Counted from the stretch's first letter, positions 27,001 to 48,319 are shown. The stretch is 64,000 nucleotides of DNA from Myxococcota bacterium (GCA_049602155.1 JBMYRH010000003.1:301871-365870), one strand, 5' to 3'. Numbers and translations are program-made. Notes: generated by a model from the sequence alone, not told the origin.

Positions 27001-27330
27001 ACCATTATCACCTCTGCCGGTGACTTCAACGGTGACGGCTTCACTGACGTCGTGCTCGGTGCGCCCGGCGCCGCCACGGCCGGAGAAAATGGCGGTGCCG
27101 CCTACCTCTTCTACGGCCCCGTCTCGGGTAGCTTCTCCCTCAGTGCAGCTGATGTCACCTTCAACAGCGTTCAAGGACAAGCGCTCGTCGGTCACCGTGT
27201 CGGGAGTCCTGGTGACCTCAACGGGGACGGAAATGACGACCTCGTCATCACCGCGCCAGGCTTTGACCATGTTGGGGGCGCTGGGGTCGACACCGGGGCC
27301 GCCTACGTTTGGTTGGGCCAGGGCGAGTAG
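21001..27330 (+). CDS. Giant secreted mosaic Cys-rich / FG-GAP repeat protein C (2109 aa)
   Basis: TGATG overlap with the B stop. Signal peptide LLLALSLSWSAQA. Run of D..PCT.D.C modules (~21600-22250). Pre-peptidase-C-terminal-like and InlB-B-repeat-like segments. CGDGITQGEEACDDGNTDNGDACSADC. MopE-like DVDGDGY..VEC..G.DCDD.D...HP.A.E.C.D.KDNDC repeats. C-terminal FG-GAP-like DLNGDG..D repeats. Confidence 0.85.
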   Translation: MTRLSTALGTLLLALSLSWSAQAAVSNVCLPLYSFESGAAGWYYIDQAGVKQTDLWRSGVGIGGSGALKVPSGVTAIHHDNPSSLPGAQLCFHARPSSGPLGQAAAMWTQDNQDFGCSSGCFTSQYPPRQPCPSKTGALKVSKDSGLSGASMPVSTGYQLYQFPAGLHQGPDCVIPAGATIGIEHLSHVYIDNIGVMFTKKDCLEECVDGAGCDDQDPCTQDQCVGGQCLNTPIAGCCENKEDCGDGDPCTIDQCLFNGTCHHIPRPFCCEDDAECTDDSPCTIDTCENHHCVNLMGCDDGLDCTSDVCNPDTGACDYVPNNEGCPAPQDPCMTAVCVPGEGCREEPINCDDGLPCTVDTCVAGQGCTHESTCDDDNPCTDDHCDEQGQCTSAPNQAPCDDDDSCTGGDQAPCEGTITISTHGKCLFGTADGSVGQSLNTQTITTGGCGEEANWTLTLEPGGQYSISRTSPSGDVYCLSASATGPSPMVETPCMPSGDWAGPAGTVWSQRWDLEAFADVYRIQRDVGAGAECVQQTNNGIGLEVCPELVTGLDSWTILGPDGEPCSYQDQCADGVCGGADLSLAGDGCADAIPLPANLGTSLYEGSLACMADQASMLCGGEGSPEALYTLTLHDPTLVSARVLSSHDTVLYMATSCEPDDVPCADDTGVGQAEILEQVLEPGVWFIAVDGASGTESGGYTLEVTLTAVDPTQPLTVEVSGEGHVSSEPDGILCGVLCHADFLEGSVVELTAHGFAGAPFLGWSGGGCDDTTDSCIVEMSAAQSVTAHFGEVPDPELTITDQPPLVTASAEASIDFQTNFIDPQYTCQVDEEEPTSCTPPLLLTGLIKGQHAVTVRATRPADGAQVIETVLWTVDISAPETSIVTAPEVITWSNSAMIEFTSNEALVTFTCRHQGPQGPGGWFPCDSPLMLNELQPGWHTVSVYATDSAGNADLTPAHTTWQARNLNTVILTGPPEESTAPDAAFTFGVNDPQATLLYSLNGGPTTGTGLTLTLSDLPLGAYSLAVWSEHVVDGQLLVDETPAEWAWAQIAEEPTCGDGITQGEEACDDGNTDNGDACSADCKINCDVDEDGYIATVCGGDDCNDNEPLLPSAPPLGVSEADLRWLTAPANDVSSATDLTGEGLALVDVTLEPQSPGSVIAFAPLASSHMSDIAGTVARFAVTATMPHDGEGVRFQGREYVQDSVDAPAPYAPRLVLSCTSNVACKVSCPPVTTVFEAVADAYAQAHLSSDVVEPLAPEAAPEQLLVTASQAAEGTTSAKTWLAFDLRGYSCDGTLSSGKLELSVLQWPANDFKLSLYGLSPGPACVDSCDSDDDAATHPLCGGDDCDDEDPGVNPAAGEICDDGKDNDCNPETPDVCTDPCDVDGDGYISVECQGGDDCNDNNEFINPGVEESCDDGKDNDCDPETPDVCIDPCDVDGDGYISVECADGNDCDDNDKLVHPEAEEVCDDDKDNDCNPETPDQCEDPCDVDGDGYISVECADGNDCDDNDKLVHPEAEEICGDDKDNDCNPETSDECQDPCDADGDGYISVECADGNDCDDNDKLVHPEAGEICGDDKDNDCNPETSDECQDPCDADGDGYASVECADGNDCDDNDKLVHPGAEEICGDGKDNDCSGQGSNQCQLTGSYKADGGHATLIGAYTRGRVGMAFTPTGDLNGDTAPDIALGAPADIGEGGTGRAFLVRGTAAGEVTLLVNAEEVLGSMTGFPGALFGSSLTAGALAPEAAITLAVGSPMHANGEGESACKSGRISLFDGPFNGNAEAIPWSNATASIVGTDYISKGGCYDDSIGAHLDASADLNADGRVDLLSNSRWLLGADQTNAYGYFGPLNGAVIEPSLSFKNLGNLEGSVSIPTQVVHLGDINADGHADLGISYTRDSTVKVDAGALYIFHGPFEPGASLSIESAGGSIRGASTGLQFGQVEGGAMSVADVTGDGVADLLVTNAPTGEAIGAYVFAGPIQEHITTAQASAVWSGEGTQRPTIITSAGDFNGDGFTDVVLGAPGAATAGENGGAAYLFYGPVSGSFSLSAADVTFNSVQGQALVGHRVGSPGDLNGDGNDDLVITAPGFDHVGGAGVDTGAAYVWLGQGE
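25141..25935 (+). repeat. Five tandem 159-bp (53-aa) coding repeats inside gene C
   Basis: Units start at 25141, 25300, 25459, 25618 and 25777, each CD(V/A)DGDGY(I/A)SVEC..G.DC.DN....(H/N)P......C.D.KDNDC. The first ~90 nt of the copies at 25300 and 25459 are identical by eye. Confidence 0.9.
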
Positions 27331-27505: not shown

Positions 27506-29791
27506 TCAGGCCTTTCGACGCCACCACCACGTGCCGGCCCCCAAGAGCAAGAAGAGGCCGACCACAGCCCAAAGGAGCCATGGCGTCTCCGGCTCAGGGT
27601 CCTCAGGGGGTACATCAGCCTTAGGCGGCGCCTCGGTCACAGGCTTGGTCGCAAGGACCACGTGGGAGACCGTGGCCGCTGGACCGTTGAGCCCATGGAT
27701 GGTCGTCCCTTTGACCTCGAACTCCCATGAACCTGGAGAGTCGACGTCGGTCTGAATCCACAGGGGCGGCGCGGTCCCCTTGACTGTGCCGGCGTCTCGC
27801 CAATCCTCACCTGGCGGTTTAACCCTCACGGTGTACACGTGGGTCAGGCCATCGGTGATCCGTGCCCAGAAGACACGCAGACGCTGGAGCGCGGGCTCAC
27901 TGCGGACCTTGAGCTTAGTCGGCTTGACCGGTAGGCCAGCGCCCGCAGGCATCCGGTAGCTCCAGTCTTTGCCAAGATAGGAGCGGAGGCCCCCTTCGCT
28001 GACCGCCTGCACGTTGTAGCGGTGCTCAGATCCCCGTTCCAGGCGCTCAGTCTCCCACATGCGGGCGTCCGGCCCCAAAAGCGGCGAGGCGGTCACGGCC
28101 TTGCCGTTGATGTAGAGCTGGAACCCAGTGACGTTCTCAAGGGTGGGGAAGCGCCAGTGGAGGCGTAGACGGCGGCCCGAATCGATGAGCTCGAAGCGCT
28201 CGAAGACGACGTTCGGGAGGTACTTCCCTGGGGTGTCGATCTTGACCTCCGAGGGGGGGCTCTCGATGCTGGCCTTAGAGATCGCGGTGACACGGAACGT
28301 GTAAGGGCGCGCCTCCACCGTCCCGATTGGGTAACGATAAATGGGGGCGCTGAGAGGCTCGATGCCCGCCTGCCTCACGACCTCACCAGGGTGACTCTCA
28401 TCAGAGTCGATGAGCCATTGATGAGTCACCGTGTCATCCGCAGCGGGCGCTGCCCAGGTCAAGACCGCGAAGCGCTTGCCTTCCTGGACCTCGATGGTCG
28501 CCTTGAGATCTTGAGGAGCCGGTGGCTCTCGAAGGTCGCTGATGAGGACCGGAACGATCTTGGAGCTGTACGGCATGCGATCGCTCTTGCGGAGCGCGAC
28601 GACCTTGTAGCTGTAGGTATTACCAACAATCTTCTCGCTGGTATCCAAGGTGTGGCGCGTCGTCGGCGAGAGGTCGGCGCGGATTGCTTTGAAGGCCTCT
28701 CGGGCCCCCTCACGCCGATGGAGCTCGAAACCTTGGATGTACTTCTCGTGCGCCATATCGAATTCCCAGTTCACCGCGAGGTCGCCGTTTTGAAGCTGCT
28801 TAGCCTCTGTGAGGACCGGGGCCTCCAAGGGCAACACACGCGCCTCCTGCTCACGCACCGTCTCTGGATCGTAATCAGTGCTCGTCGTCCTCCTGTCTCT
28901 CGCTACGAAGCTCCGAGTGGTGACGTGGTACGTGTAGGGTGCCTCCTGATCAGCGAGGTGGTCGTAGAAGGAGCACTCAAGCATATCGCCGACGCGCTCA
29001 ATCACAGGGTGTCCGAGTTCTACGACCTCCTTATCACCCCCAGGGCCGATCACGTCGCGGCTGACCCCAAAGGGGCGCAAGTCGAGCTCGTCGTAGAGCG
29101 ACGCTGGGAAGCTCCACGTAAGCCGAACACCGGTTGGATGCACGGTGGCGAAGTTCGGAGTGACGGCGAGGCGAGGATCGTCATTGGGTACGTAGAGGTC
29201 ATGAAAGGTCCCTATTGGCTCCGCGGACCGCACCCCGGAGGCTGAGACCTCGAAGAAGCCATAGAGTTGCCCTGCTTGGGTGAGCGGCCGTGCGCGCGTG
29301 GTCCCGAACCCAAACACCCAGACGGCGTTCTCTTCGTGGAGGAGGTTTGCACGGACGGCGTTGATCATCTCTTCACCGCTGATCGTTGTGAGGAAGGCAA
29401 GGAAGGCGGCGTCGTCGTCGAAATTGATGGTCCCGTTAGCCAAGCGGGACATCAGATCCGCCCTCAGCAGGCTCTGTGCGACATCTTCGTAGTGTACGTC
29501 AGACCACACACGCTCCGTCGAGATCGAGGGCTTGATGGGCTTGAGCGTCGTCCTCACCCACGGTCCGCTCCTCACACCAGCGCCGTCACAGGGGGCTCGG
29601 AGGATATCGATCGCTGCAACATCAGCTGGCCACGCTTCGACCGGCACCCAGAGCAAGCGCACCTCCGCAGGCGCGCTGTCACCGTGGACCTCTAACCAGC
29701 TCGCGAGGCTGCTGGTCGAAAGGAGACACATCATCACAAGGGCTGATGCGCAGTGACATGCGAGTGTCATGATGCGCGCCGTAAACATCAT
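27506..29791 (-). CDS. FN3-repeat surface protein F (761 aa) with C-terminal PEP-like/TM/basic tail
   Basis: Starts 7 nt after the E stop. N-terminal signal-like hydrophobic segment. FN3-like units (PPAPQDLKATIEVQEGKRFAVLTWAAP...). C-terminus DPEPETPWLLWAVVGLFLLLGAGTWWWRRKA. Confidence 0.8.
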   Translation of the reverse strand: MMFTARIMTLACHCASALVMMCLLSTSSLASWLEVHGDSAPAEVRLLWVPVEAWPADVAAIDILRAPCDGAGVRSGPWVRTTLKPIKPSISTERVWSDVHYEDVAQSLLRADLMSRLANGTINFDDDAAFLAFLTTISGEEMINAVRANLLHEENAVWVFGFGTTRARPLTQAGQLYGFFEVSASGVRSAEPIGTFHDLYVPNDDPRLAVTPNFATVHPTGVRLTWSFPASLYDELDLRPFGVSRDVIGPGGDKEVVELGHPVIERVGDMLECSFYDHLADQEAPYTYHVTTRSFVARDRRTTSTDYDPETVREQEARVLPLEAPVLTEAKQLQNGDLAVNWEFDMAHEKYIQGFELHRREGAREAFKAIRADLSPTTRHTLDTSEKIVGNTYSYKVVALRKSDRMPYSSKIVPVLISDLREPPAPQDLKATIEVQEGKRFAVLTWAAPAADDTVTHQWLIDSDESHPGEVVRQAGIEPLSAPIYRYPIGTVEARPYTFRVTAISKASIESPPSEVKIDTPGKYLPNVVFERFELIDSGRRLRLHWRFPTLENVTGFQLYINGKAVTASPLLGPDARMWETERLERGSEHRYNVQAVSEGGLRSYLGKDWSYRMPAGAGLPVKPTKLKVRSEPALQRLRVFWARITDGLTHVYTVRVKPPGEDWRDAGTVKGTAPPLWIQTDVDSPGSWEFEVKGTTIHGLNGPAATVSHVVLATKPVTEAPPKADVPPEDPEPETPWLLWAVVGLFLLLGAGTWWWRRKA

Positions 29792-29798
29792 GCGCCGC

Positions 29799-32700
29799 CT
29801 AGAATGTGTGACTGAAGGAGTGGTTGACGTTCACCCCAAAGCTAGTAACGAAATAAGCTGAACCAGCGACCCTCAGGCGGTTGGTGGAGGTCTGGCTCGC
29901 CTGGAAGCTCGCGCTCGCGGAGACCGAGAGGTAACTGAAGCAGCTTGAGCAGCCAAAGGGGCAGGGCCACTTGACCTTGACGTTGCCGTTAAACGAGGCA
30001 TGGACACCAAAGCTGCCACCACTCATCCCGTCGTTATCAAAATTCGCCCCGAGGCTCCCGCCGATAGACATCCCGATACCGCCGCCGGCACCTAGGCCGA
30101 GAGAGTTCGAGGTCGCTTGGGCGGTCGAGCAGGTGGCCGAGTTGAATCCGCTCGGGTACCTGAAGGTGACCGACCCACCCACTTCGATTGATCCGCTGAT
30201 GTGCCCGTTGAACGAGTTCTCAAGGACCGCAGGGTTCGTCGAGACCTGAGAGCTAAAGTTGAAGGTCCCTTGAACCTCAAGGAAGCCCCAAAAGAGGTTG
30301 GCGACGATCGGCGTCGGGGTCTCCACAGACCACCCACCCTCATCGGACTCATAGAGCACGGTGCCGTTCAACTCAAAGAACCAGGGGTCACCGCGGGGTA
30401 TCTCAACGTTGGTTGAGATACCCCCAGCCATTGAGTCGCCGCCCAGCTCGTAGTTGTTGATAAAGACCGTGCCGCTGATCCAGGGGTCGACCTGCGGGAT
30501 CGAGATGCCCGCTGCACCGGAGAGCAACGTTGGACCACTGCCAAACTGGACTTGGACATAGAGGTCGAAGCCGATAATCCCGGCCGGATCGCCGAGGCCG
30601 ATGCCCAAGCCGACGATGTAGTTCCCGAGAGATGGGTAGCCGGGTGCAGCGAGCGTCTCACCACTGCCGCCTCCCCCCCCAAAGGGCAAACAGACCTGGC
30701 CAGGGTCTGGTGGGCAGCCCGCGATGCCGTCCATCCCATAGTTGTAGCCTCCCGCGGCCGCGAACTTCTTCACGAAGGGGAGCGGGAGCCCCGCCGCGAC
30801 GATCTGAAGGTAGATGAACGTGAAGGGACTCGAACCGCTGAGCGCCGTGCCAACATCGATCGATGCGCCCACCGTCACCAGGCCGGCGATGCTCAGGTTG
30901 TTGATATAGCCAGTGAAGCGCGAGGTGGTCCCGTTATCTTCGTATGAGGCCTGGAAGGTCCCCGTGAGCGGCGCTTGCGTGAGCGCCCCAGTGATCTTCT
31001 GAATCGAGATCAGGCCAGCGTCATTGCACTTGAAATTGATGATCGTGAACTGACCAAGCGGCGGGATCACCAGCTTGGCCGAGAACGTCAACTCGCTGCC
31101 TGCGGTGATATAGCTCGCGTTGGTCACCGAGAGCTCGAAGCCCTGGAACCCCGTCGTAAACGAGGCCATGGAGAATTCGCTTATCCCTAGCCCAGTCGCC
31201 CCTGGAAGGTCCTCAAGCTTGACCACGACCCCCTCGATGGCGGTGTCAAAGTCGGGGTGTTGGGCCGAGGCCGTACCCACGAGCGAGATGAGGTCAAAGT
31301 CGTAGCTGAAGACCCCGGTGAGGCTCAGGTTACTGATCTCCATCCCCACCACTTCAATTGTGCTCGCGCCCGTCGCGCAGCATGAGCAGCCGAGGCCCAA
31401 GCCCAAGCCCACAGTCACTTGGGTCGGGGCGAAGTCCAAGACCAAGTCTATGCTGCCGTCGAGCCCTGCGAAGCCAGAGGTTGAGAGCGCACCGCCCCCT
31501 GAGAGGAAGTCCAGTTGACTGTTGGCGATGTTGTAGTTGAAGCCCACGGAGAGGTCGCAGATCTGCGCCGTGACCCCGAAGGTCGTGAACGTAATCGGCG
31601 CCGCTTGGACAAGGGTCGCCTCCAGCACCCCTGTTGGCTGCAGCACACCGGTCGCTGAGGCGAGCACGTCGGTGCCCCTGACGAGATCGATGTGGATCCC
31701 CTCGATCCCACCGAAATTCCAGTTCCCCGTCCAATCTGTATCGCCACCGAACGCGAAGCTGAAGGTCCCGTAAAGCCCGTGACGTAAAATCGCGTTGGTG
31801 CCCAGGTTGGCGTCCGCTGTGGTCGCGACCTCGAAGTCGACGATACCTGAAAGCTGCCCTTGATTATTCAACGCCAAGGTGACCTCGGTCACCTTGCCCT
31901 CGACGACCCCGAAGGTCCCCACAGCCTGCTCACCTTCCCAGGTCACGACCGCGGACGCGAATTCCTGCGAACCACCGCTGCCGGCCACTGGCGCCTGCTC
32001 TTTCCAAGCCAGGGTCACTTGGCTCAAATCCATCGTCTTGACGAAGAGCGTCTCGGTTTTGATCTCCAGGCTCGGTGGCACGTACTCGTAGCTGCACAAG
32101 CCCTGGTCGTCTTGCCCCGTAAACGCGACGCCACCAGAGGTCCAGTCAACGCTGAACGGCACCAGAGTCGAGTTGCTGATAGCGAAGGCCGATGGCGTCA
32201 GGAGGTCAAGACAGGACTCAAAGCCAGCGACGGGATCGTTGATGTCATCGCTGCCTTGGCAGTCCCCCGGGCACATCGAAGGGTTCTCGTTGATCTCGCA
32301 GACCCCATTGCCGCATTCACTGTCAATCGCCGGGCAGTTGGCGTTGCAGCTGTTGTCTGCGAGGGCGATACAGTCCTCTGTCCAGTTGCCGGTGCAGCAC
32401 GCGGAGTCGATGGCGCATACGCAGGCCGCGATGCCCTCCGTCTCGCAGCCTGGGCTACCATTCTCTGTGCAGCAGCCCCCCTCGTAGTCGGCGGGGCCGG
32501 AGTTGCTGCCCCCTTGCAAGACGGTGTTGGCAGAGGCGGCGCAGGTCGCGCCGTTTGTGTAGCCAAACTGAAGCACAATTTCCTGGAACTCCACGGGCGC
32601 CGTCGTAGCCCCGTCCAGGCCCGCGCGGAGGAAGACTTGTGAAGGGACCACCTCGCCCGCGGCCAGGTCCCACTGGTATGGGAGCGTGATTGGGCCGGTG

Positions 32701-34322
32701 CAGTCGGGGTTCAAGAAGACCTCAACGTTGCCTTGACCGAGTTGGAGCGTGGCCGTCCCTTGGCAGATCGCGCTCGGAGGCGGGATGTCGAGGCTGAGGT
32801 TGACCGCTGTGAGCAGGTCACCGGAGCCGCACGCCGATGCTGAGGTGTCGCCGAAGGACACCTCTCCGGTGCACGAGGAGATCTCAAGGTTGCAACCCGG
32901 TGGAGAAGAGGTGACCCGGATCCAGCTCTCGTGGACGTCCGTCTGAGCTGCGAAGTCCGTGACGGTCACGACGACCTTGTACTCTCCTTCGGGGAAGCTC
33001 GCCGTGTCGATTGCACCCTCCGTCTCCTCCTCTTCGTCTCTCCAGGTCTCGGGCAGGCAGTCGGCGTCGGGGCGCGCTCGGAGGTTCGCGAGGTTGTAGA
33101 CGTGCGGGGAGGTCTTCGTGACCGGCGGCTCGAAGGGGTTGTAGAGCAGATCGCTCCCGATATCGGATTCTCCAGAGCCATCGAGCCGTGCGTTCGCTTC
33201 CGCCAAGCAGTAGGGCCCGGCCTGATAGGGGGTCGCGAGCATCGGGTGGATGTAGTCGCTCACCGTGGGCGATGGCGGGGGCGCAAGGGGATCGAGGCCA
33301 AAGATCTCGACGTCGATCTGCTTGATCGCCCTCGTCGGATCTGCTGCCGCATCAACCGCCTCGCATGTGACCACCGGCGGGGCGGTCTCCGTCCCTCCGT
33401 CCGCGTCACAGCGCGGCGGACCCACGTCGCGAACGCCGACGGTAATGTCGAAGAGGGCCGGATCTCCAGGGACGCTCGCCGTCGGCACGACGACCGCGGG
33501 CACCGAGGTCCCGCCAATGTTGACCGTCTGGATCCCAAGGGCGTTGTTACCGCTCATGCTGCCGTGAGCATACATGGTGACCTGGGTGATCTGGGGCGGC
33601 GTTGTATCCCCATCCAGCGCCTGAACCGGGGCGCTCTGAGGCGCCAACCCGAGGTTCAGGTAGATCATCGGGTCGAGGTAGTATCCCTTAGGATCGAGGA
33701 CAGTGATGGTGATGCGCCCTCGAGGGCCCAGCGAGGCCGCGCCGATCCCTCGGGGTTTGCCCAGCACGTCGCCCATACGCACCACGTAGGCCTCGGGCTC
33801 CTCTTGGCTGTACTTGATGAACTTCTCTGAGAAGATCTGCGCGTCGCCTACCTCGGCCTCCGATGGGTTCAGCGGGTCATCGGCCTCCTCCGCCAAGTAG
33901 AGGGCCTTGACCGCCTTTCGGACCTCACTGGCCTGCAACCCGCCGATGAGCACGTATTGAGGGACGGCTTTGACCTCCTCAATCTCGTTGATTTGGTCCT
34001 TTTTAGGCTTCAGTGTCACCCGCACAGTGCCGTAGCCCTGGGCTTGGTCGCACCACACACCGGGGGGGCACCACTCCATGATGCCGTCCACTGGCGAGGA
34101 GATCGGGATCTCCTTCGAGATCCACATGCGCACGCCGGTGCTCATGTGGACCTGCTCATCGTCGTCTTCGTACAGCTGGCCGAAGTAACGCTCTAGGTAG
34201 AATCCGCCGTTGGCGTTCAGGTCAAAGGCAGTGGGGACCAAGAAGGGCTTCTTGCAGCCGGCCGCAAAGAGGCCAAGGGCTGCGACGATCAGGAGTGCTG
34301 CGACGAGGCGAATACGGGTCAT
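29799..34322 (-). CDS. Giant lipoprotein E (~1507 aa), beta-rich, paralogous core to protein A
   Basis: ATG 34322 forms an ATGA overlap with the D stop; the track lists a GTG at 34331. It gives MTRIRLVAALLIVAALGLFAAGC (lipobox). Gly/Ser/Thr/Val-rich repeats. Ends ...VTSFGVNVNHSFSHTF. Confidence 0.85.
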   Translation of the reverse strand: MTRIRLVAALLIVAALGLFAAGCKKPFLVPTAFDLNANGGFYLERYFGQLYEDDDEQVHMSTGVRMWISKEIPISSPVDGIMEWCPPGVWCDQAQGYGTVRVTLKPKKDQINEIEEVKAVPQYVLIGGLQASEVRKAVKALYLAEEADDPLNPSEAEVGDAQIFSEKFIKYSQEEPEAYVVRMGDVLGKPRGIGAASLGPRGRITITVLDPKGYYLDPMIYLNLGLAPQSAPVQALDGDTTPPQITQVTMYAHGSMSGNNALGIQTVNIGGTSVPAVVVPTASVPGDPALFDITVGVRDVGPPRCDADGGTETAPPVVTCEAVDAAADPTRAIKQIDVEIFGLDPLAPPPSPTVSDYIHPMLATPYQAGPYCLAEANARLDGSGESDIGSDLLYNPFEPPVTKTSPHVYNLANLRARPDADCLPETWRDEEEETEGAIDTASFPEGEYKVVVTVTDFAAQTDVHESWIRVTSSPPGCNLEISSCTGEVSFGDTSASACGSGDLLTAVNLSLDIPPPSAICQGTATLQLGQGNVEVFLNPDCTGPITLPYQWDLAAGEVVPSQVFLRAGLDGATTAPVEFQEIVLQFGYTNGATCAASANTVLQGGSNSGPADYEGGCCTENGSPGCETEGIAACVCAIDSACCTGNWTEDCIALADNSCNANCPAIDSECGNGVCEINENPSMCPGDCQGSDDINDPVAGFESCLDLLTPSAFAISNSTLVPFSVDWTSGGVAFTGQDDQGLCSYEYVPPSLEIKTETLFVKTMDLSQVTLAWKEQAPVAGSGGSQEFASAVVTWEGEQAVGTFGVVEGKVTEVTLALNNQGQLSGIVDFEVATTADANLGTNAILRHGLYGTFSFAFGGDTDWTGNWNFGGIEGIHIDLVRGTDVLASATGVLQPTGVLEATLVQAAPITFTTFGVTAQICDLSVGFNYNIANSQLDFLSGGGALSTSGFAGLDGSIDLVLDFAPTQVTVGLGLGLGCSCCATGASTIEVVGMEISNLSLTGVFSYDFDLISLVGTASAQHPDFDTAIEGVVVKLEDLPGATGLGISEFSMASFTTGFQGFELSVTNASYITAGSELTFSAKLVIPPLGQFTIINFKCNDAGLISIQKITGALTQAPLTGTFQASYEDNGTTSRFTGYINNLSIAGLVTVGASIDVGTALSGSSPFTFIYLQIVAAGLPLPFVKKFAAAGGYNYGMDGIAGCPPDPGQVCLPFGGGGGSGETLAAPGYPSLGNYIVGLGIGLGDPAGIIGFDLYVQVQFGSGPTLLSGAAGISIPQVDPWISGTVFINNYELGGDSMAGGISTNVEIPRGDPWFFELNGTVLYESDEGGWSVETPTPIVANLFWGFLEVQGTFNFSSQVSTNPAVLENSFNGHISGSIEVGGSVTFRYPSGFNSATCSTAQATSNSLGLGAGGGIGMSIGGSLGANFDNDGMSGGSFGVHASFNGNVKVKWPCPFGCSSCFSYLSVSASASFQASQTSTNRLRVAGSAYFVTSFGVNVNHSFSHTF

Positions 34323-37300
34323 TGTAGACACCCCCCAGGCGGGCCTTCATCGAACTGAGGCGCGCAGAAATCGCACACATCATCGCAGCAGTCACCAAAG
34401 TCAAAGCAGCCAGGATCGCAAGCACAATTGCCAGCGTATCCGCCGCACTGCCCTGCGCAAGAGCCGTCGATTACGCAGACCCCATTGGGGCTGCACTGCT
34501 CGCCGTCACCGCACAACCCACAGGTGCCGCCACAACCATCAGGCCCGCAGGCGCTGTCCGGCGCGCAGCTGGGTTCACACACCGGGCACTGCCCGTTGGT
34601 ACACTGTCCACCGTCAGCGCAGGTCCCACAAGAGCCCCCGCAGCCATTGGGTCCACACTGCTTACCGTCGCAGTCAGGCTCACACCCCCCCGCGCACCCG
34701 TTGGGCGGCGCCTCCAAGAAGAGGTCTCCGCATGCGTCACAGATGTCATCGCAGCAGTTCCCAAGGGCGAAGCAGAAAGCGTCGCAGGCGCAGGTCTGAG
34801 CGCTCGCGCCGCAGAGCCCCCCGCAGGAGTCAGCCGCCAAGCACTCTCCAAAGGGTGAGCAATCCTGCCCAGCCTCGCACGCGCCACAGCTGCCACCACA
34901 GCCATCATCGCCGCAGGCCTTGTCCGCGCAGTCGGGGACACACGCACCGCACACGCCAGCATGACAGACCGCGCCATCGGCACAGGACCCGCACGTTCCC
35001 CCGCAGCCATCCGAACCACAGCCCTTGCCGTCGCAGTCGGGGACACACGCTCCACAGAGCCCCTGAGCGGCGAGCCCTGGGCAAGCATCGCAAGCGTCGT
35101 CACAACAGTCACCAGTCTCAAAACACTCACCGTCGCAGAAGCAGCCACCGGGCGCAGCGCCACCACAGTAGCCGGCGCAGCTCGTCGCGTTCGTACACTG
35201 ACCGGATGGCCCGCACGCCTCCCCGTCGGCGCACACACCGCAGGTGCCTCCGCAGCCATCCGGACCACAGCTCACGCCCTCGCAGGCCGGTTGGCAGACC
35301 TCACATTGCCCAGCCGCTGTGCAATTTTCACCCTCCGCGCAGGTCCCACAGGTCTCCGCGCAACCGTCCGATCCGCACACCTTGCCTTCGCAGCTCGGCT
35401 CACACAGCCCGCAGGCGACCTGACCGGGCAGACTCAAGATGGGACCACAGGTCTCACACACGTCGGCGCAACAATCGCCGTTATCGAAGCAGCTGGAGTC
35501 GCAATAGCACTGACCCGGCGAACCGGAGCATTGCCCAGCGCAGGAAGCCGGGTCGGTGCACGCACCGAGCAAACAGTAGAGCCCATCATCACAGGCGCCG
35601 CAGCTCCCTCCACATCCATCAGAGCCACACGCTTTGCCCTCGCAGACGGGCGTGCAGAGGACGCAAGCCCCTGCGGCACAATAGTCGCCGACCTCACACT
35701 CCCCGCACTGACCGCCGCAGCCATCTGGGCCGCAGGCCTTACCCTCACACGAGGGGACGCACGGCGCACACGCACCCTCATCGTCACACACCTCACCAGC
35801 GTCGCAGGAGCCACACGCGCCACCACACCCATCGGGGCCGCAGAGCTTACCGTCGCAGCTCGGCTCGCACGGCGCGCAGCCCTCCGGCGCGGGGCCATCA
35901 AAGGCCCCTGAGCATGCATCGCAGAAGTCCGCACAGCAGTCCCCAAAGAGGACGCAATCCGCGTCGCACACGCAGTCACCGCCGACGTCACCGCAGCGGT
36001 CCACACACGAGCCCGACGAGACACATTGGAGGGAGAGCCCGCACACCTCACCTTCACCGCACGCACCGCAGCTGCCTCCGCAGCCATCTGGGCCGCAGGA
36101 GGCGCCTTCGCACGAGGGCACACACACGGTGCACGCCCCGTCATCGCAGGTCTGGCCCTCGGCGCAGTCGCCGCAGCTCCCGCCACAGCCGTCATCACCG
36201 CACACCGCGGCACCACAGTCCGGGACACAGGGTTGCCCGCAACCAACAGGCGTCGGCTCGGGGTAGACATCGACACACACGTCGCAGAGGTCGTCACAGC
36301 AGTCGCCCGTGATTTGACACGTGATCGAGCACGAGCAGCCGCCAGCGTCCAAGGAGCCGCACTTTCCAACGCAGGAGCCCGAAGCCATGCAGAGCCCATC
36401 CGCGGTGCAGAGGACCCCTTCGGCACACGCGCCACAGGTTCCGCCGCAGCCGTCGTCTCCGCATGCTTTGCCGTCGCAGCTCGGCTCGCATGCATCGCAC
36501 TTGTCCCCCGACACAGAGCACTGTTGGCCTGCCGGGCAGAGGCCGCAGAGCGTCCCGCAGCCATCATCACCGCACACTTTCCCGTCGCAAGCCGGTTGGC
36601 AGAGCGTGCAGCTCACTGGCGCATCATCTCCGCACACCGGGCAGACATCCGGACAGCACGTGCCCTTAGTCGCGCAGTCTGGGTCGCAGTCGCAGAGGGC
36701 CCCTAAGGTCCCACAGCGGTTCACGCATGAGGAGGGATTCACGCACTGCCCCTCAAGGTCGCAATAGGTCGAGTCGTCACAGGCGCCGCAGCTGCCGCCG
36801 CACCCGTCGTCACCACAGGTCTTGCCGTCGCAGCTCGCGACGCAACCTTCGCAGGCAAAGGCCGGCGAACAGGTGGTGCCCTCCGCGCACTCGCCACAGG
36901 TGCCGCCGCACCCATCGTCACCGCACGCCTTATCCGCACAGTCGGGCGTGCAATCGCAGCCAGCGATCACCACGCCGACGCAACCATCTGGCGTGCAGGC
37001 ATCGTCTGAGGTGCACGGGTCATCATCGTCGCAGGTGCTCCCGGCCTCGGCCGAGACCTCGGCACACGCTCCGTCCGCGCAGATGGCCACCATGCACGGC
37101 CCGGAGAGCTCAAAGTCGACGCACTCCTCATCAGAGACGCACCCACTCACGTCGAGGGCCGATGCATCTCCGGTCGCATCGGTCGTATCGAGCGCCGGGC
37201 CAACGTCGGCGTCTTCTGCGTCGGATGGGGCGTCGGGGACATCAGGCTCTGGCGCGACATCCTCAGCGTCCTCGGGGGGCGTCACCACATCGGCAGTGTC

Positions 37301-37564
37301 ATCAACCGGGGGCACGTCCGTGGTGTCTTCAGGGGGGGCGACGACGGCGTCATTGACGTCAAGCTCCGGGACAAGCGCGTCAGAGGCGTCAGCCTCTGGC
37401 GTGATGTCCGCCGACACAGCGGTGTCCTCAGGTGCCTCGGTGTCCGTCGGCAGTGGCGAGTCCTCGGGACCACACGCAGCTAGACAGGCGCAAAGAAGCA
37501 CCATCCGGAAGGTCACCGAGCGCTCCAAACAGGAGACACGCCTTTGATCGTCAATTGCCCGCAT
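34319..37564 (-). CDS. Hyper-Cys-rich repeat lipoprotein D (1081 aa)
   Basis: Lipoprotein signal MVLLCACLAACG; an alternative start at ATG 37504 is possible. Acidic Pro/Asp/Glu linker. By my count, 15 C..C.GK.CG.DGCGG.CG.C modules are interleaved with 7 SC.G.CG....C.CD..C...GDCC.D.C..C modules. Confidence 0.85.
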   Translation of the reverse strand: MRAIDDQRRVSCLERSVTFRMVLLCACLAACGPEDSPLPTDTEAPEDTAVSADITPEADASDALVPELDVNDAVVAPPEDTTDVPPVDDTADVVTPPEDAEDVAPEPDVPDAPSDAEDADVGPALDTTDATGDASALDVSGCVSDEECVDFELSGPCMVAICADGACAEVSAEAGSTCDDDDPCTSDDACTPDGCVGVVIAGCDCTPDCADKACGDDGCGGTCGECAEGTTCSPAFACEGCVASCDGKTCGDDGCGGSCGACDDSTYCDLEGQCVNPSSCVNRCGTLGALCDCDPDCATKGTCCPDVCPVCGDDAPVSCTLCQPACDGKVCGDDGCGTLCGLCPAGQQCSVSGDKCDACEPSCDGKACGDDGCGGTCGACAEGVLCTADGLCMASGSCVGKCGSLDAGGCSCSITCQITGDCCDDLCDVCVDVYPEPTPVGCGQPCVPDCGAAVCGDDGCGGSCGDCAEGQTCDDGACTVCVPSCEGASCGPDGCGGSCGACGEGEVCGLSLQCVSSGSCVDRCGDVGGDCVCDADCVLFGDCCADFCDACSGAFDGPAPEGCAPCEPSCDGKLCGPDGCGGACGSCDAGEVCDDEGACAPCVPSCEGKACGPDGCGGQCGECEVGDYCAAGACVLCTPVCEGKACGSDGCGGSCGACDDGLYCLLGACTDPASCAGQCSGSPGQCYCDSSCFDNGDCCADVCETCGPILSLPGQVACGLCEPSCEGKVCGSDGCAETCGTCAEGENCTAAGQCEVCQPACEGVSCGPDGCGGTCGVCADGEACGPSGQCTNATSCAGYCGGAAPGGCFCDGECFETGDCCDDACDACPGLAAQGLCGACVPDCDGKGCGSDGCGGTCGSCADGAVCHAGVCGACVPDCADKACGDDGCGGSCGACEAGQDCSPFGECLAADSCGGLCGASAQTCACDAFCFALGNCCDDICDACGDLFLEAPPNGCAGGCEPDCDGKQCGPNGCGGSCGTCADGGQCTNGQCPVCEPSCAPDSACGPDGCGGTCGLCGDGEQCSPNGVCVIDGSCAGQCGGYAGNCACDPGCFDFGDCCDDVCDFCAPQFDEGPPGGCLQ

Positions 37565-43857: not shown

Positions 43858-46800
43858 CTAGGGGATCTCGCCGTCGAGGCAGTCGCCCCCGTCCCAAAGC
43901 AGCTCATCACAGGCAAACACCGCATCGCAGCTGTTGTCGCCGTACCACGTGTTTGGTGTGCAACCGCCGAAGCAATTGGCCGTCTGATCCTGTGCGCAGG
44001 TGCCATTCGAGGGGCAATCGCCGTCATCCCAAGAGAGCTCGATGCACTGAAACTGAATGTCGCACCATGAATCGCCCAGCCACCCAGCCGGCCGACACAC
44101 CTGCTTGCAGTCTTTGATTTGCCCCTCTGGGCAGCAGTCACCACCGTCCCACTCGCCGTCTTCGCAGGCGAAGGTGGGATCACACAGGCCGTCACCCATC
44201 GAGGCCTCGGCGCAGACCCCTTCGCAGTTCGTCGCTTGACCCTCTGGGCATGGGATCGGGCAGTCGCCAGCGTCCCAATTAAGGGCCTCGCAGGCGAAGG
44301 CTGGATCGCAGAAGCCGTTGCCCAGGCCTACGAACTTGCAGACGCCAGCGCAGTCTTTGATCTGCCCCATCGGGCAGCAATCTCCCCCGTCCCAAGAGTT
44401 CTGCCAGCACGCCAGGACAGACTGGCAGGTGCCGTCACCCAACCACGCTTCAGGTTGGCAAGTCCCATCACAGCCCTTGACCGTCCCATCACCGCAACAG
44501 TCGCCACCATCCCAGTCCGTCTCCGCGCAGTTCATCGAGCTGCTGCAAGACCCGTTGCCGAGCTCAGAGGCCGCTGTGCAGATGCCCTGGCAGCTCTTCA
44601 CGTAGCCATCGGGGCAACAGTCGAAGTTGTCGTAGCTCATCGTCACGCATTGCAGCTCCGGCTGGCAGATCCCGTCACCGAGAAGCGCCTGATCGATGCA
44701 GTTAAAGTCGCAGTCCACGATCTCTCCTGGCGCGCACTCCACGATCGGTGAACAGTCTCCGGCGTCCCAAGCGAGCGCTTCGCACTGGAGCTGCGGCTGG
44801 CAGAGGCCGTCCCCAAGCCACCAACTCCAGGAGCACGTCCCATCGCAGTCCGTGATCTCGAAGGCTGTACAGCAGTCGCCACCGTCCCACGCGTGAGAGA
44901 GGCAACGGAGCGCCTCGTCACACTGACCATCTCCCACCGACGATGAAGGCTGGCAGCCGCCTACGCAGTCCGCGACCTCTCCGGGCGGGCAGACGACGAG
45001 GGCCTCGCAGTCGCCAGAGTCCCACCCAAAGGTCTCGCATTGAAACTCGGGATCACAGAAACCATCACCCAACCAAGTCGGCCAAGCGCAACCACCGTCG
45101 CATGTCTTGATCTCCCCTGTCGGGCAGCAATCCAGCCCATCCCAACCCGTATCTAAGCAGGCCAAAGTAGCTTGGCAGGTGCCATCGCCCAGCCACGTCG
45201 CCGGGAGGCAGCCCCCGACGCAATCGGCCACCTCATCTTCTGCGCACTCAGCGACGACGGGGCAATCGCCCTCATCCCAATTCGTCGCCGAGCAGGCCAG
45301 GGACTGGTCGCAGGTGCCGTCGCCGAGCCAGCTGAGCCATACGCAGCCGCCCTGGCAGTTGGCGACCTGAAGGTCGGTGCAGCAATCGCCGCCGTCCCAG
45401 ACCGTCTCCTCGCATTGCAGGGGTGCGTCACAGATCCCGTTGCCGAGCGCCGATGAGGCGACACAGCCCCCCAAGCAGTCTGGGGTCTCCCCATTGGGGC
45501 ACACCACCACAGGCTCACAGTCACCGCCATCCCAGCCCGTCAACTCGCAGGCGAGCACGGGATCACAGAGGCCATCGCCGAACCAGGTCTCAAAAGAGCA
45601 CTCTCCGAGACAATCGGGGGCTTTACCGGTCGGGCAGCAGTCTTCACCATCCCAATCGGTCTCCTCACACCTCAAGCTCTCGTCGCACACCCCGTCACCC
45701 AGCGATGATGCAGGCTGGCACCCTCCCAAACAGTCAGGAGTTTCTCCGAGGCCGCACTCGACCACCGGCGCGCAGTCGCCATTGTCCCACCCCAGCTCCT
45801 CGCACGCGAAGACATCGTCGCAGCTGCCGTTGCCCAACCAGCCAGCCCATGAGCACGCCCCAAGGCAGTTCGGTGTGAGGCCGTCCGCGCACTGCGTCGG
45901 GGCGCAATCACCGCCGTCCCAGCTGGTCGCTTCACAGTCCAGTTCAAAGTCGCAGAAGCCGTTGCCGTAGACCTCGGCGGGCAGGCAGGTCGCCGCACAG
46001 CTGGGCGTCTGACCGGGAGGACAGAAGACGCCTGGGCAATCCCCGCCATCCCAGTTCAATGCATCACACGCGAAGGGCTCATCACACTCACCGTCACCGT
46101 ACCAACTTTGCCAACTGCACGTCTCCATGCAGTCGAGCTGTTGCCCGTCTGGGCACACAGGCGCGTCGATACAATCGCCCTCGTCAAAGCCCTGGGCTTC
46201 ACAGTTGAGCGCCTCATCACACTGACCATCCCCAAGGGCGGCCACAGCGGTGCATCCACCGAGGCAATCCAAGACCTCTGTGGCCGGGGCGCACACTGGA
46301 CCAGGAGGCTGACAGTCCCCGTTATCCCAGTCGGTCGCCTCGCAATCGAAGAGCGGGTCACAAAAACCGTCCCCCAACCAGTTCTCCTGCGTACACCCGT
46401 CTGCACAGTTCGGAGCTTGCCCGATCGGGCAGCCAATCACGCCGCAATCCCCGCCATCGAGGCCAAAGGGGATGCAATCAAAATTGCTGTCACAGACGCC
46501 GTCACCCACCTTCGCGAGGTCCCCACACACCCCTGTGCAGTCGTAGAGGAAGCCCACGGGGCAGTCACCGGCGATGCAATCGCCGCCATCCTCTTGGTAA
46601 GCGGGACAGTTAAACGCGTCATCACAGCTGCCGTTACCGATTAACCCCTCTGGCAGGCACTCCCCCACGCAGCTCGGGACTTCCCCAGGGGGGCAGCAGT
46701 CACCTGAATCATAGCCGCTTTCTTTACAGTTCAGCTCGGGGTGACATTCGCCATCACCATTGAGCACTGCGGCGATGCACTCCCCTTCGCAGTCCAGGAT

Positions 46801-48033
46801 CTGCCCCGGCAAGCACTCCCCGGTGACGCAGTCGCTGCCGTCGTAGTCCCAAAGCCCGCAGTTCAACGACGCGTCGCATTGACCATCGCCGAGCGCCCCC
46901 TCCGGTGTGCAGCCGTCGAGACAATCCACCAGGTCACCATCCGGGCATGGGTCAACGACACAGTCACCGCCATCCCAGTTGAAGGCCTCGCAGTTCAGCG
47001 CTTCGTCACACGTGCCGTCGTTCACGAGCGCCGCCAATACACAGCTGCCGTCACAGGCCAAGAGCTCGGCGGGCGCGCACGCCGAGCAGTCGCCTCCATC
47101 AAAGCTGAGCTCTGGGCAGTTTAATGCGGGGTCGCAAACCCCGTCTCCGTAGGACAGCGAGGGCGTGCATCCGCCAATGCAGTCAGACATCTCGTTCATG
47201 GGGCACCCTGCCGCGCATAGCCCATCTGCACCACAGGTGGTGCCGACGCCGCAGGTCCCGCAGCTGCCGCCACATCCATCGTCGCCGCACGCTTTGTCGT
47301 CACATTGCGGTGTGCAGGCTGTGGGATCGACACAGACCCCGTCTTCAGAGCACATGAACCCCACGCCACAGACACCACAGCTGCCACCGCACCCGTCGTC
47401 ACCGCACGCTTTATTCGCGCAGTCCGGGGTGCACACCGAGGGGTCAACGCACTGCCCCTCTAGAGAACAGGTCAGCCCGATGCCGCACACCCCGCAGCTG
47501 ACGCCGCACCCATTATCACCACACTCGCGGGTGTCACAGACACCACAACAAGGGTCATCGGCCGGTGGCGTGTGGATACAGCCGTCAGTGCCACAGGTGT
47601 CCACGGTGCAGGCATCGCCGTCGTCACAATTCTTTGCAAAGCCGCCAACGCACACGCCTCCTTGGCATGCCTCTCCGTCCAAACACGGCGCGCTATCACA
47701 AGGCGAACCGTCCTCTGCAAAGGCAACCTCGCAGACCCCAAGGGTGCACACGACCTGCTCACATGTCCCCGCGATCAGCCCCGCGCAGTCGGCGTCTTCT
47801 TGGCACTCCGGCTCTGCTGCTTGGTCGAGGGTGTCCCCGGGCGTCGCCGTGCTGCCCGCGTCTGCGCGCGCGACCTCGCTGGTCTGAGTCCAACCGGGCT
47901 GCGGAGCGGGCGGCACGCTGCTCGTGGTGTCACCAGACAGGTCACCACCGGTGCACGCGCTCGCGAAGAGCGCGGCCGCCATCAAGAAGAAGGTAAGACA
48001 AGCGCGACGGATGAGATCCCCCTGGGTGATCAA
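43858..48033 (-). CDS. Giant Cys-rich lipoprotein with 26 tandem LNR (Lin-12/Notch repeat)-like modules
   Basis: The stop is firm; the start is uncertain. The track ORF reaches 48291, but 48034-48291 is low-GC and not protein-like. TTG 48033 gives (M)ITQGDLIRRACLTFFLMAAALFASAC; ATG 47982 is also possible. N-terminal region has CG.(D/N)GCG.SCG.C modules, followed by the LNR-like array. Confidence 0.8.
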   Translation of the reverse strand: MITQGDLIRRACLTFFLMAAALFASACTGGDLSGDTTSSVPPAPQPGWTQTSEVARADAGSTATPGDTLDQAAEPECQEDADCAGLIAGTCEQVVCTLGVCEVAFAEDGSPCDSAPCLDGEACQGGVCVGGFAKNCDDGDACTVDTCGTDGCIHTPPADDPCCGVCDTRECGDNGCGVSCGVCGIGLTCSLEGQCVDPSVCTPDCANKACGDDGCGGSCGVCGVGFMCSEDGVCVDPTACTPQCDDKACGDDGCGGSCGTCGVGTTCGADGLCAAGCPMNEMSDCIGGCTPSLSYGDGVCDPALNCPELSFDGGDCSACAPAELLACDGSCVLAALVNDGTCDEALNCEAFNWDGGDCVVDPCPDGDLVDCLDGCTPEGALGDGQCDASLNCGLWDYDGSDCVTGECLPGQILDCEGECIAAVLNGDGECHPELNCKESGYDSGDCCPPGEVPSCVGECLPEGLIGNGSCDDAFNCPAYQEDGGDCIAGDCPVGFLYDCTGVCGDLAKVGDGVCDSNFDCIPFGLDGGDCGVIGCPIGQAPNCADGCTQENWLGDGFCDPLFDCEATDWDNGDCQPPGPVCAPATEVLDCLGGCTAVAALGDGQCDEALNCEAQGFDEGDCIDAPVCPDGQQLDCMETCSWQSWYGDGECDEPFACDALNWDGGDCPGVFCPPGQTPSCAATCLPAEVYGNGFCDFELDCEATSWDGGDCAPTQCADGLTPNCLGACSWAGWLGNGSCDDVFACEELGWDNGDCAPVVECGLGETPDCLGGCQPASSLGDGVCDESLRCEETDWDGEDCCPTGKAPDCLGECSFETWFGDGLCDPVLACELTGWDGGDCEPVVVCPNGETPDCLGGCVASSALGNGICDAPLQCEETVWDGGDCCTDLQVANCQGGCVWLSWLGDGTCDQSLACSATNWDEGDCPVVAECAEDEVADCVGGCLPATWLGDGTCQATLACLDTGWDGLDCCPTGEIKTCDGGCAWPTWLGDGFCDPEFQCETFGWDSGDCEALVVCPPGEVADCVGGCQPSSSVGDGQCDEALRCLSHAWDGGDCCTAFEITDCDGTCSWSWWLGDGLCQPQLQCEALAWDAGDCSPIVECAPGEIVDCDFNCIDQALLGDGICQPELQCVTMSYDNFDCCPDGYVKSCQGICTAASELGNGSCSSSMNCAETDWDGGDCCGDGTVKGCDGTCQPEAWLGDGTCQSVLACWQNSWDGGDCCPMGQIKDCAGVCKFVGLGNGFCDPAFACEALNWDAGDCPIPCPEGQATNCEGVCAEASMGDGLCDPTFACEDGEWDGGDCCPEGQIKDCKQVCRPAGWLGDSWCDIQFQCIELSWDDGDCPSNGTCAQDQTANCFGGCTPNTWYGDNSCDAVFACDELLWDGGDCLDGEIP
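43879..47205 (-). repeat. Array of 26 tandem ~40-47-aa coding repeats (LNR-like)
   Basis: Each unit has the form C(P).G....C.G.C......G(D/N)G.C(D)....C.....(W/Y/F)D.GDC, e.g. CLGGCTAVAALGDGQCDEALNCEAQGFDEGDC. Counted from the translation (residues 363-1471 of the track ORF). Confidence 0.9.
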
Positions 48034-48319
48034 GGGCGCTCGAACGTCTCTCAACGCCAGCTCAAGCCGGCAGTGAAATGATGGTGCCCTCTTAGCCGGA
48101 TACGACAGAGCGACGGGTAGAATCAAGTCTCGGTCCAAACCGAGGCCATCAAAGGGGTCGGTAAAACCTCCCCAATGCGGCGGCTCAAGGTCACCAAGTG
48201 AAAGGCTCGACTGGACAAACCCACGACAACGAGCGACACTTAAGTGATTAGAATTATAACCAAATCGCGACAAAGCCGAACCAAGGGACACACAGATAAG
48301 GACTCAGAGGCTGCTCTTT

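Follow-up and report, generated by a model that had tools for sequence, protein, structure and literature searches.

Somatomedin-B (SMB) domains (PF01033; SCOP g.64) are extracellular modules that occur in tandem arrays and are known from vitronectin, ENPP1/2/3, EndoU/PP11 and SUSD2, where they adjoin hemopexin, nuclease or phosphodiesterase domains. A role in binding is established for the SMB domains of vitronectin (PAI-1, uPAR) and of the ENPP proteins. In a fold survey of 2022, the folds of SMB (g.64) and of Notch/LNR (g.65) were listed as synapomorphies of Holozoa (PMC9541633). Here, we analyzed gene D, which is located on a bacterial stretch of DNA of 64,000 nucleotides (GCA_049602155.1 JBMYRH010000003.1:301871-365870), hereafter called the window, with positions counted from its first letter. 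Gene D encodes a protein of two types of Cys-rich modules, A and B. The B modules share with SMB domains the Cys order, the extracellular setting and the arrangement in tandem arrays, but differ from known SMB domains in having a bacterial host, in carrying two extra Cys residues (one at CC+4 and one in the tail) and in being set between A modules.

Two further groups of repeats are comparable to the modules of D. EGF-like and LDL-A arrays of animal matrix and receptor proteins are chains of 35-40-amino-acid (aa) disulfide-locked modules that form extended extracellular stalks, as the A modules would in D. The Myxococcus repeat (TIGR02232/DUF4215) and the repeat CysRRep, both rich in Cys like A and B, are enriched in secreted proteins of Myxococcota. 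CysRRep has 27 matches in Myxococcota and its spacing, Cx6-9Cx5-7Cx8-11Cx7-8CC, differs from that of A and of B (bioRxiv 10.64898/2026.06.07.730663).

Protein D is a chain of 22 cysteine-rich modules

Cys accounts for 204 of the 1,081 residues of protein D (18.9%) in the translated open reading frame (ORF). Gene D comprises the following parts, of which the seven supermodules were each delimited by regular expression and by a hidden Markov model (HMM):

34319..37564 (stop codon included), minus strand: gene D, a predicted Cys-rich lipoprotein of 1,081 aa, defined by ORF and translation, homologs and contiguity in public assemblies
37472..37564, minus strand: putative signal peptide with lipobox, aa 1-31 (basic n-region, MVLLCACLAA, L-A-A-C31), read from the sequence
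37145..37471, minus strand: acidic Pro-rich linker, aa 32-140 (109 aa), defined by composition (34 Asp and Glu, 0 Lys and Arg, 17 Pro, 0 Cys)
36953..37144, minus strand: Cys-rich head, aa 141-204 (64 aa, 10 Cys), defined by similarity to the LNR-like protein encoded in the same window
36602..36952, minus strand: supermodule 1, aa 205-321 (A 205-238, A 241-274, B 279-319)
36230..36601, minus strand: supermodule 2, aa 322-445 (A 322-356, A 359-392, B 397-442)
35870..36229, minus strand: supermodule 3, aa 446-565 (A 446-478, A 481-514, B 519-563), the one that was modelled
35405..35869, minus strand: supermodule 4, aa 566-720 (A 566-599, A 602-634, A 637-669, B 674-718)
35048..35404, minus strand: supermodule 5, aa 721-839 (A 721-754, A 757-790, B 795-837)
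34685..35047, minus strand: supermodule 6, aa 840-960 (A 840-872, A 875-908, B 913-957)
34322..34684, minus strand: supermodule 7, aa 961-1081 (A 961-993, A 996-1030, B 1035-1079)

The repeat block (aa 205-1081, window 34322-36952) has the module order AAB AAB AAB AAAB AAB AAB AAB and thus contains 15 A and 7 B modules. A preliminary description of this locus had given the same block, with seven supermodules of two or three A modules followed by one B module; regular expression and HMM agree with it, and the example modules that it quoted are correct. The HMM scan covered the six-frame ORFs of the window independently of the regular expression, and found no A or B modules in ORFs other than D and the LNR-like protein. 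D ends two residues past the tail Cys of the B module of supermodule 7.

The N-terminus, MRAIDDQRRVSCLERSVTFR-MVLLCACLAA-C31-G, contains a basic n-region, a hydrophobic h-region and the lipobox L-A-A-C, as judged by eye against the consensus. Bacterial lipoproteins, the substrates of Lgt and LspA, carry the lipobox consensus [LVI][ASTVI][GAS]C, and the match suggests that the signal of D is a lipoprotein signal peptide. The isoelectric point of the signal peptide is 8.5, versus 4.05 for the remainder of the protein. The acidic linker described earlier is present, but the supermodules do not follow it directly, since the head of 64 aa intervenes. This head is 37% identical to the N-terminal region of the LNR-like protein (E 2e-6) and had no significant match in Pfam; similar heads were spotted by eye in the homologs P0009 and P0026. 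The LNR-like protein had also been said to open with A modules, and three of them were indeed found by translation and HMM, so that head and A modules are common to both proteins. Protein D is an exported, strongly acidic chain of 22 small disulfide-type modules, 7 of which are SMB domains.

The B modules match somatomedin-B domains

The B modules follow the pattern S-C-x3-C-x6-7-C-x-C-x3-C-x5-CC-x3-C-x2-C, and one further Cys follows 8-12 residues on. The resulting ten Cys positions are invariant across the copies in D, which corrects the single extra Cys counted before: there are two, the Cys at CC+4 and the tail Cys. The other eight reproduce the order and, nearly identically, the spacing of SMB domains (C-x3-C-x6-7-C-x-C-x3-C-x5-CC-x6-C), with a first loop of 6-7 residues in B versus 9 in SMB. 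In the form C-x3-C-xn-C-x-C-x3-C-x5-CC-x6-C they are invariant in the 7 copies of D and in 41 relatives.

PF01033 (Somatomedin_B) was the only Pfam family matched by whole D, at 24.0 bits with a gathering cut-off of 23.1. When the B modules were scanned singly, all seven matched PF01033 (E 8.5e-7 to 3e-3). Three of them scored above the cut-off (27.0, 23.5 and 29.6 bits, the last and best being that of supermodule 3), while the remaining four were slightly below it (21.0, 18.2, 20.0 and 20.4 bits). The alignments started at profile position 1 or 2 and extended to position 37-39 of 40.

With a domain of only about 40 aa, a Cys-dominated score and two additional Cys in B, the resemblance could be convergent, B being an unrelated bacterial knot that shares the Cys spacing. 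However, none of ten shuffled sequences in which every Cys was kept in place matched SMB, even at E up to 10, and thus the match exceeds what Cys spacing provides. A profile of the seven B modules was also compared with the sequences of the PDB. All 43 distinct sequences retrieved were SMB proteins, with the best matches to EndoU (5.3e-12), SUSD2 (4.6e-9) and ENPP1 (2.1e-7), followed by ENPP3, vitronectin and autotaxin, and the identity of B to SMB proteins in the PDB comparisons was 34-47%. Residues other than Cys are shared as well, namely the Ser before the first Cys, Gly-Arg/Lys before the second Cys (SC.GRCG in SMB notation), C.CD and GDCC.D. Convergence is therefore considered very unlikely.

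An AlphaFold2 model of supermodule 3, calculated from an alignment of 91 sequences, had a mean pLDDT of 93.3, and all five models reached at least 89. When it was compared with the PDB using Foldseek, the top matches of the predicted fold were the SMB domains of ENPP1, ENPP2, ENPP3, vitronectin and SUSD2, with root-mean-square deviations (rmsd) of 1.5-2.2 Å. The match to ENPP1 had an rmsd of 1.5-1.8 Å over 32-35 columns with 43-47% identity, and that to vitronectin (1oc0_B) a TM-score of 0.75 and an rmsd of 2.2 Å. Both the scan with PF01033 and the modelling of one supermodule had been proposed as checks of the SMB likeness in the preliminary description, and the outcome of each agrees with it. 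Taken together, these results support the assignment of the B modules as true SMB domains of a 10-Cys variant.

The two additional cysteines of the B modules occur together

Compared with canonical SMB domains, B has two more Cys, one at CC+4 and one in the tail, beyond the final Cys of the SMB pattern. Their co-occurrence was counted in 712 SMB-like modules of the fetched proteins, the sequences of which are related. Where the Cys at CC+4 is present, 324 of 328 modules have a tail Cys within 2-14 residues; where it is absent, 202 of 384 do (Fisher's p = 5e-54, a value that overstates the independence of the modules because they are kin). As the two residues co-occur, we infer that they may form a fifth disulfide, which would staple the tail to the knot. 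Where a B module ends the protein (D, P0005, P0009, P0028 and P0057), its tail Cys is still present.

Outside D, the same variant was found in P0125 (UniRef UPI00398EF8D3), an animal protein of the DMBT1-like CUB/ZP type that contains 14 SMB repeats, in a marine protist transcript (P0128, MMETSP) and in a Flavobacteriales T9SS (type IX secretion) protein (P0135). P0125 and P0128 carry the CC-x3-C-x2-C ... C form in long tandem arrays. Unlike D, they are eukaryotic and have no A modules; Thr/Pro-rich mucin-like linkers lie between their SMB repeats, or the repeats are joined to CUB and ZP domains. By bridging the bacterial and eukaryotic forms, these two proteins further argue against convergence.

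The closest architecture found was that of P0009 (905 aa, ENA; PF01033 match precomputed), which has the same head, 10 A and 7 B modules and the 10-Cys variant. P0009 is about 40% identical to D, its units are mostly A-B whereas those of D are A-A-B, and as recorded it has no lipobox and may be truncated. This protein has never been named or described.

The A module represents an uncatalogued family

The A modules follow the pattern C-x3-C-x4-C-G-x-D-G-C-G-G-x-C-G-x-C-x5-C-x4-6-C and contain eight Cys in 33-35 aa. No match to the A module was obtained in Pfam or NCBIfam (including TIGRFAMs) at E up to 10. The possibility, raised earlier, of a single known bacterial repeat family that covers both modules is thus not borne out. 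The scan against NCBIfam, including TIGRFAMs (e.g., myxo_disulf_rpt), gave 0 families at E up to 10, and neither A nor B matches the Myxococcus repeat. The A profile retrieved a single, unrelated protein from the PDB sequences (E 0.19), and nothing relevant to the motif DGCGG was found in the literature.

Within the model of supermodule 3, the A modules had a pLDDT of 93-96, and their C-terminal half (C..G..C...G.C) is predicted to form a β-hairpin reminiscent of EGF modules. Foldseek returned weak matches to fibrillin, LDLR, VLDLR and megalin, with probabilities of at most 0.12. In contrast to the six-Cys pattern of EGF and LDL-A modules, however, A has eight Cys in another spacing and a Gly-rich CG.DGCGG.CG.C core, and it did not match Pfam EGF or Ldl_recept_a at E up to 10. 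Membership of A in the EGF-like or LDL-A families was rejected on account of the eight Cys, the missing Pfam match and the low Foldseek probabilities. CysRRep was rejected as the identity of A or B because of its different spacing.

With the A module modelled on its own, Foldseek gave three matches, all with a probability of at most 0.08, and the top one, although insignificant, was a conotoxin. Since the modules also match knottin/conotoxin-type peptides in size, D might be a polyprotein precursor that is cut into small disulfide-rich peptides acting as toxins, signals or inhibitors. Between the modules, however, no conserved dibasic or other cleavage motifs are found. The A-A junctions in D comprise only 2 residues, the tail Cys of B abuts the following module, and relatives carry these modules joined to enzymes and sorting tails. 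The polyprotein reading was rejected because of the missing cleavage motifs and these fusions, and is the least probable of those considered.

The whole-protein search for homologs of D yielded at least 2,452 matches among 8,000 scored candidates. By HMM, 1,713 copies of A were detected in 268 scanned sequences, and each of the eight Cys was at least 99.8% conserved in 1,590 modules. Among these modules there were 8 single and 0 double losses of Cys, from which no disulfide pairing could be read. The named relatives with A arrays come from metagenome-assembled genomes (MAGs) of Myxococcota or 'Deltaproteobacteria'. In relatives, the arrays adjoin domains of the agmatine deiminase, endoglucanase, papain-like peptidase, lamin-tail and PPC types. 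They are often followed by a MYXO-CTERM-like tail of the form GGCS-hydrophobic-RRR, which is missing from D, where a lipobox is present instead. These layouts would fit a role of A as a structural spacer in relatives.

In P0006, P0008, P0017, P0035, P0043 and others, an agmatine/peptidylarginine deiminase domain (PF04371) is combined with long A arrays and the GGCS-hydrophobic-RRR tail. In P0030, A modules are combined with domains of the Peptidase_M43 and CAP families and with a Ser/Ala-rich transmembrane tail of eukaryotic appearance. The A module may therefore also cross domains of life. Given its abundance, its eight invariant Cys and the lack of a counterpart in Pfam, NCBIfam and the PDB, the A module is an obvious candidate both for definition as a new curated family and for structure determination. 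Small, very stable disulfide modules in regular arrays are also of interest as scaffolds.

The repeat is old and the gene is intact

The supermodules of D share 47-61% identity at the protein level and 55-68% at the DNA level, and Tandem Repeats Finder detected no array in the DNA of D. Therefore, the repeat is old and selectively maintained, and neither slippage nor assembly collapse is its cause. The A modules gave no sign that the supermodule was duplicated as a unit, as modules at the same position were no closer to each other (44.8% vs 43.9% non-Cys identity, permutation p 0.24), and no position-specific divergence was seen among them.

In one public seawater metagenome run, gene D is tiled without differences by two contigs of equal depth, and a contig of an independent study bridges their junction. 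Gene D is thus no assembly artefact. It was found in seawater, marine and estuary metagenomes of several studies; an exact match to the protein is not on record. A scan for promoters and terminators gave background level only.

Proposed function of D and alternative readings

From the sequence features described above, we propose, with a probability of about 0.5, that D is an anchored, disulfide-stiffened stalk that presents seven SMB binding knots and serves as a multivalent adhesin or binding scaffold. Acylation of the lipobox Cys31 would anchor D in the envelope, probably at the outer membrane or cell surface. The long, flexible, acidic and Pro-rich linker of 109 aa and the A modules would form a long, stiff and protease-resistant stalk, on which the SMB knots, one per 2-3 A modules, would act as repeated protein-binding sites. 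The putative disulfide between the CC+4 and tail Cys would fix the junction of each SMB domain with the next A module by stapling its C-terminal tail to the knot. In this role, D would work with two co-transcribed envelope proteins inside a cluster of giant 'matrix-like' proteins. The binding role of D is proposed by analogy to vitronectin and the ENPP proteins.

Several points weigh against this proposal. The residues that form the PAI-1/uPAR site of vitronectin are only partly matched by B, and the vitronectin ligand is therefore not transferable to B. SMB domains of ENPP proteins also serve structural or dimerisation roles, so that the B modules need not be binding sites. The lipoprotein processing and the final location of D are predicted from its sequence, and only one of the five A-only models was confident. 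No RNA runs containing gene D were found. Finally, the host is uncultured, and its phylum, probably Myxococcota, is pointed to solely by the relatives of D itself.

The main rival is a purely structural role, in which D builds a surface layer, fibril or spacer together with its operon partners, A and B being stable bricks without a specific ligand. The use of A modules as spacers in many relatives, their lack of position-specific divergence, the uniformly acidic character of the protein, the neighborhood full of giant repeat proteins and the structural roles of ENPP SMB domains are all in line with it. However, the B modules are placed at strictly regular intervals of 2-3 A modules and the SMB variant recurs in otherwise different proteins, which suggests a selected function beyond that of a filler. 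Furthermore, A modules accompany SMB in only 13 of the best 150 multi-SMB proteins, and B is thus an independent unit. We consider a purely structural D doubtful; the other rivals are graded as unlikely.

Among the latter is a metal- or redox-active thiol protein, i.e., a metallothionein-like buffer or metal scavenger, as might be suspected from 19% Cys, the strong acidity and a neighboring gene with MopE-type putative metal-binding motifs. D has an export signal, though, and hence folds outside the cytoplasm, and the number of Cys per module is even (8 and 10) with invariant spacing. Compact folds were predicted confidently, and B is homologous to a known disulfide knot. For these reasons the metallothionein-like reading was rejected as highly improbable, and the binding stalk remains the preferred reading of D.

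Genomic neighborhood and host

Gene D is surrounded by genes for giant secreted repeat proteins containing EGF, MopE, FG-GAP, UnbV_ASPIC, LNR-like and fn3 repeats. Roughly 40 kb of the window encode such 'matrix-like' secreted repeat proteins. The following features are referred to here:

29799..34322, minus strand: predicted lipoprotein of ~1,507 aa (LFAAGC), downstream of D; its ATG overlaps the TGA of D (caATGAcc)
27506..29791, minus strand: 761-aa fn3-repeat protein (fn3 match) with a C-terminal transmembrane segment and RRK tail; starts 7 nt past the preceding stop
43858..48291, minus strand: LNR-like giant protein, from translation
47212..47547, minus strand: three A modules near the N-terminus of the LNR-like protein (HMM 23.9, 40.3 and 37.6 bits)
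10356-27330, plus strand: three consecutive giant genes of 2,316 / 1,232 / 2,109 aa (EGF/cEGF; no known family; MopE and FG-GAP repeats)

D and the two genes downstream of it probably form one operon, because the first two overlap in an ATGA stop-start and only 7 nt separate the second from the third. Both downstream partners have export signals. Scans against Pfam and NCBIfam assigned the ~1,507-aa protein to no family. A module of the form CC..GC..C.C..D..CC..W..C (CCTENGSPGCETEGIAACVCAIDSACCTGNWTEDC) is present in it and is found again in the D relatives P0002, P0003, P0007, P0011, P0131 and P0133; this module, CC..GC..C.C..CC..WD..C, may be the CysRRep repeat (bioRxiv 10.64898/2026.06.07.730663). 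For the 761-aa protein, a weak, sub-threshold match to the GVDTG_CTERM sorting domain was obtained.

The LNR-like protein probably starts at M104 (MAAALFASAC, a lipobox), at about position 47982, and its D-type Cys-rich head is located at 47623-47811. It contains the repeat C..G....C.G.C......GDG.CD...C....WDGGDC, of which at least 19 copies were found by regular expression and about 30 by eye. The whole protein had no Pfam match at 1e-3. Single repeats matched Pfam Notch/LNR weakly (E 0.0014-1.5), and three repeats jointly reached 23.6 bits (cut-off 21.2).

Loci related to D by their A and B modules occur in Myxococcales and Nannocystaceae MAGs. Of the neighboring genes, DegT is 68% identical to a protein of a Tara 'uncultured proteobacterium', and the class-V aminotransferase is about 60% identical to those of many Planctomycetota and one Polyangiaceae. 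Since these housekeeping-type neighbors have no close reference, the phylum of the host is given as probable.

Somatomedin-B domains are widespread in bacteria

When 1.84 billion representatives were searched exhaustively with HMMER and our 41-sequence B profile, SMB modules were found in 1,511 clusters at an E-value limit of 1e-3 and in 368 at a limit of 1e-10. A word-index search with a 42-aa B profile scored 31 candidates and returned 2 matches, this type of search being ill-suited to short profiles. The clusters with SMB modules are distributed over animals, protists and several bacterial groups, which demonstrates that bacterial SMB domains exist in numbers. Among the best 150 of the 1,511 clusters, 56 showed the CC-x3-C-x2-C variant and 13 contained A modules. 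Pfam automatic annotation already flags some of the bacterial SMB domains (P0009, P0121), and literature searches found no published description of SMB domains in bacteria.

The bacterial multi-SMB proteins P0123, P0134, P0140 and P0141 carry dockerin/EF-hand-like tails of the form DLNGDG.VN..DLL.LL..WG.CP, which are presumably typical of Planctomycetota-type secreted proteins. In P0134, the SMB modules are fused to a hydrolase of the metallo-beta-lactamase fold. As judged from the layouts of these four proteins, SMB modules are used in several unrelated bacterial architectures.

It is possible, although we put this forward tentatively and at clearly less than even odds, that the SMB and LNR-like knots belong to a module toolkit shared by marine bacteria (Myxococcota, Planctomycetota and Bacteroidota) and eukaryotes through cross-domain transfer, perhaps with a bacterial origin. 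In this scenario, A would be a very large, hitherto unrecognised domain family with a fold of its own and the backbone of a class of bacterial 'extracellular matrix' proteins. The SMB modules of D are a known domain in variant form, in a host where they were not expected, and its A modules belong to an abundant family that has not been catalogued. A bacterial lipoprotein with seven well-supported SMB domains bears on the origin of animal extracellular-matrix modules, as a fold that was assigned by survey to the animal lineage is also in use by bacteria.

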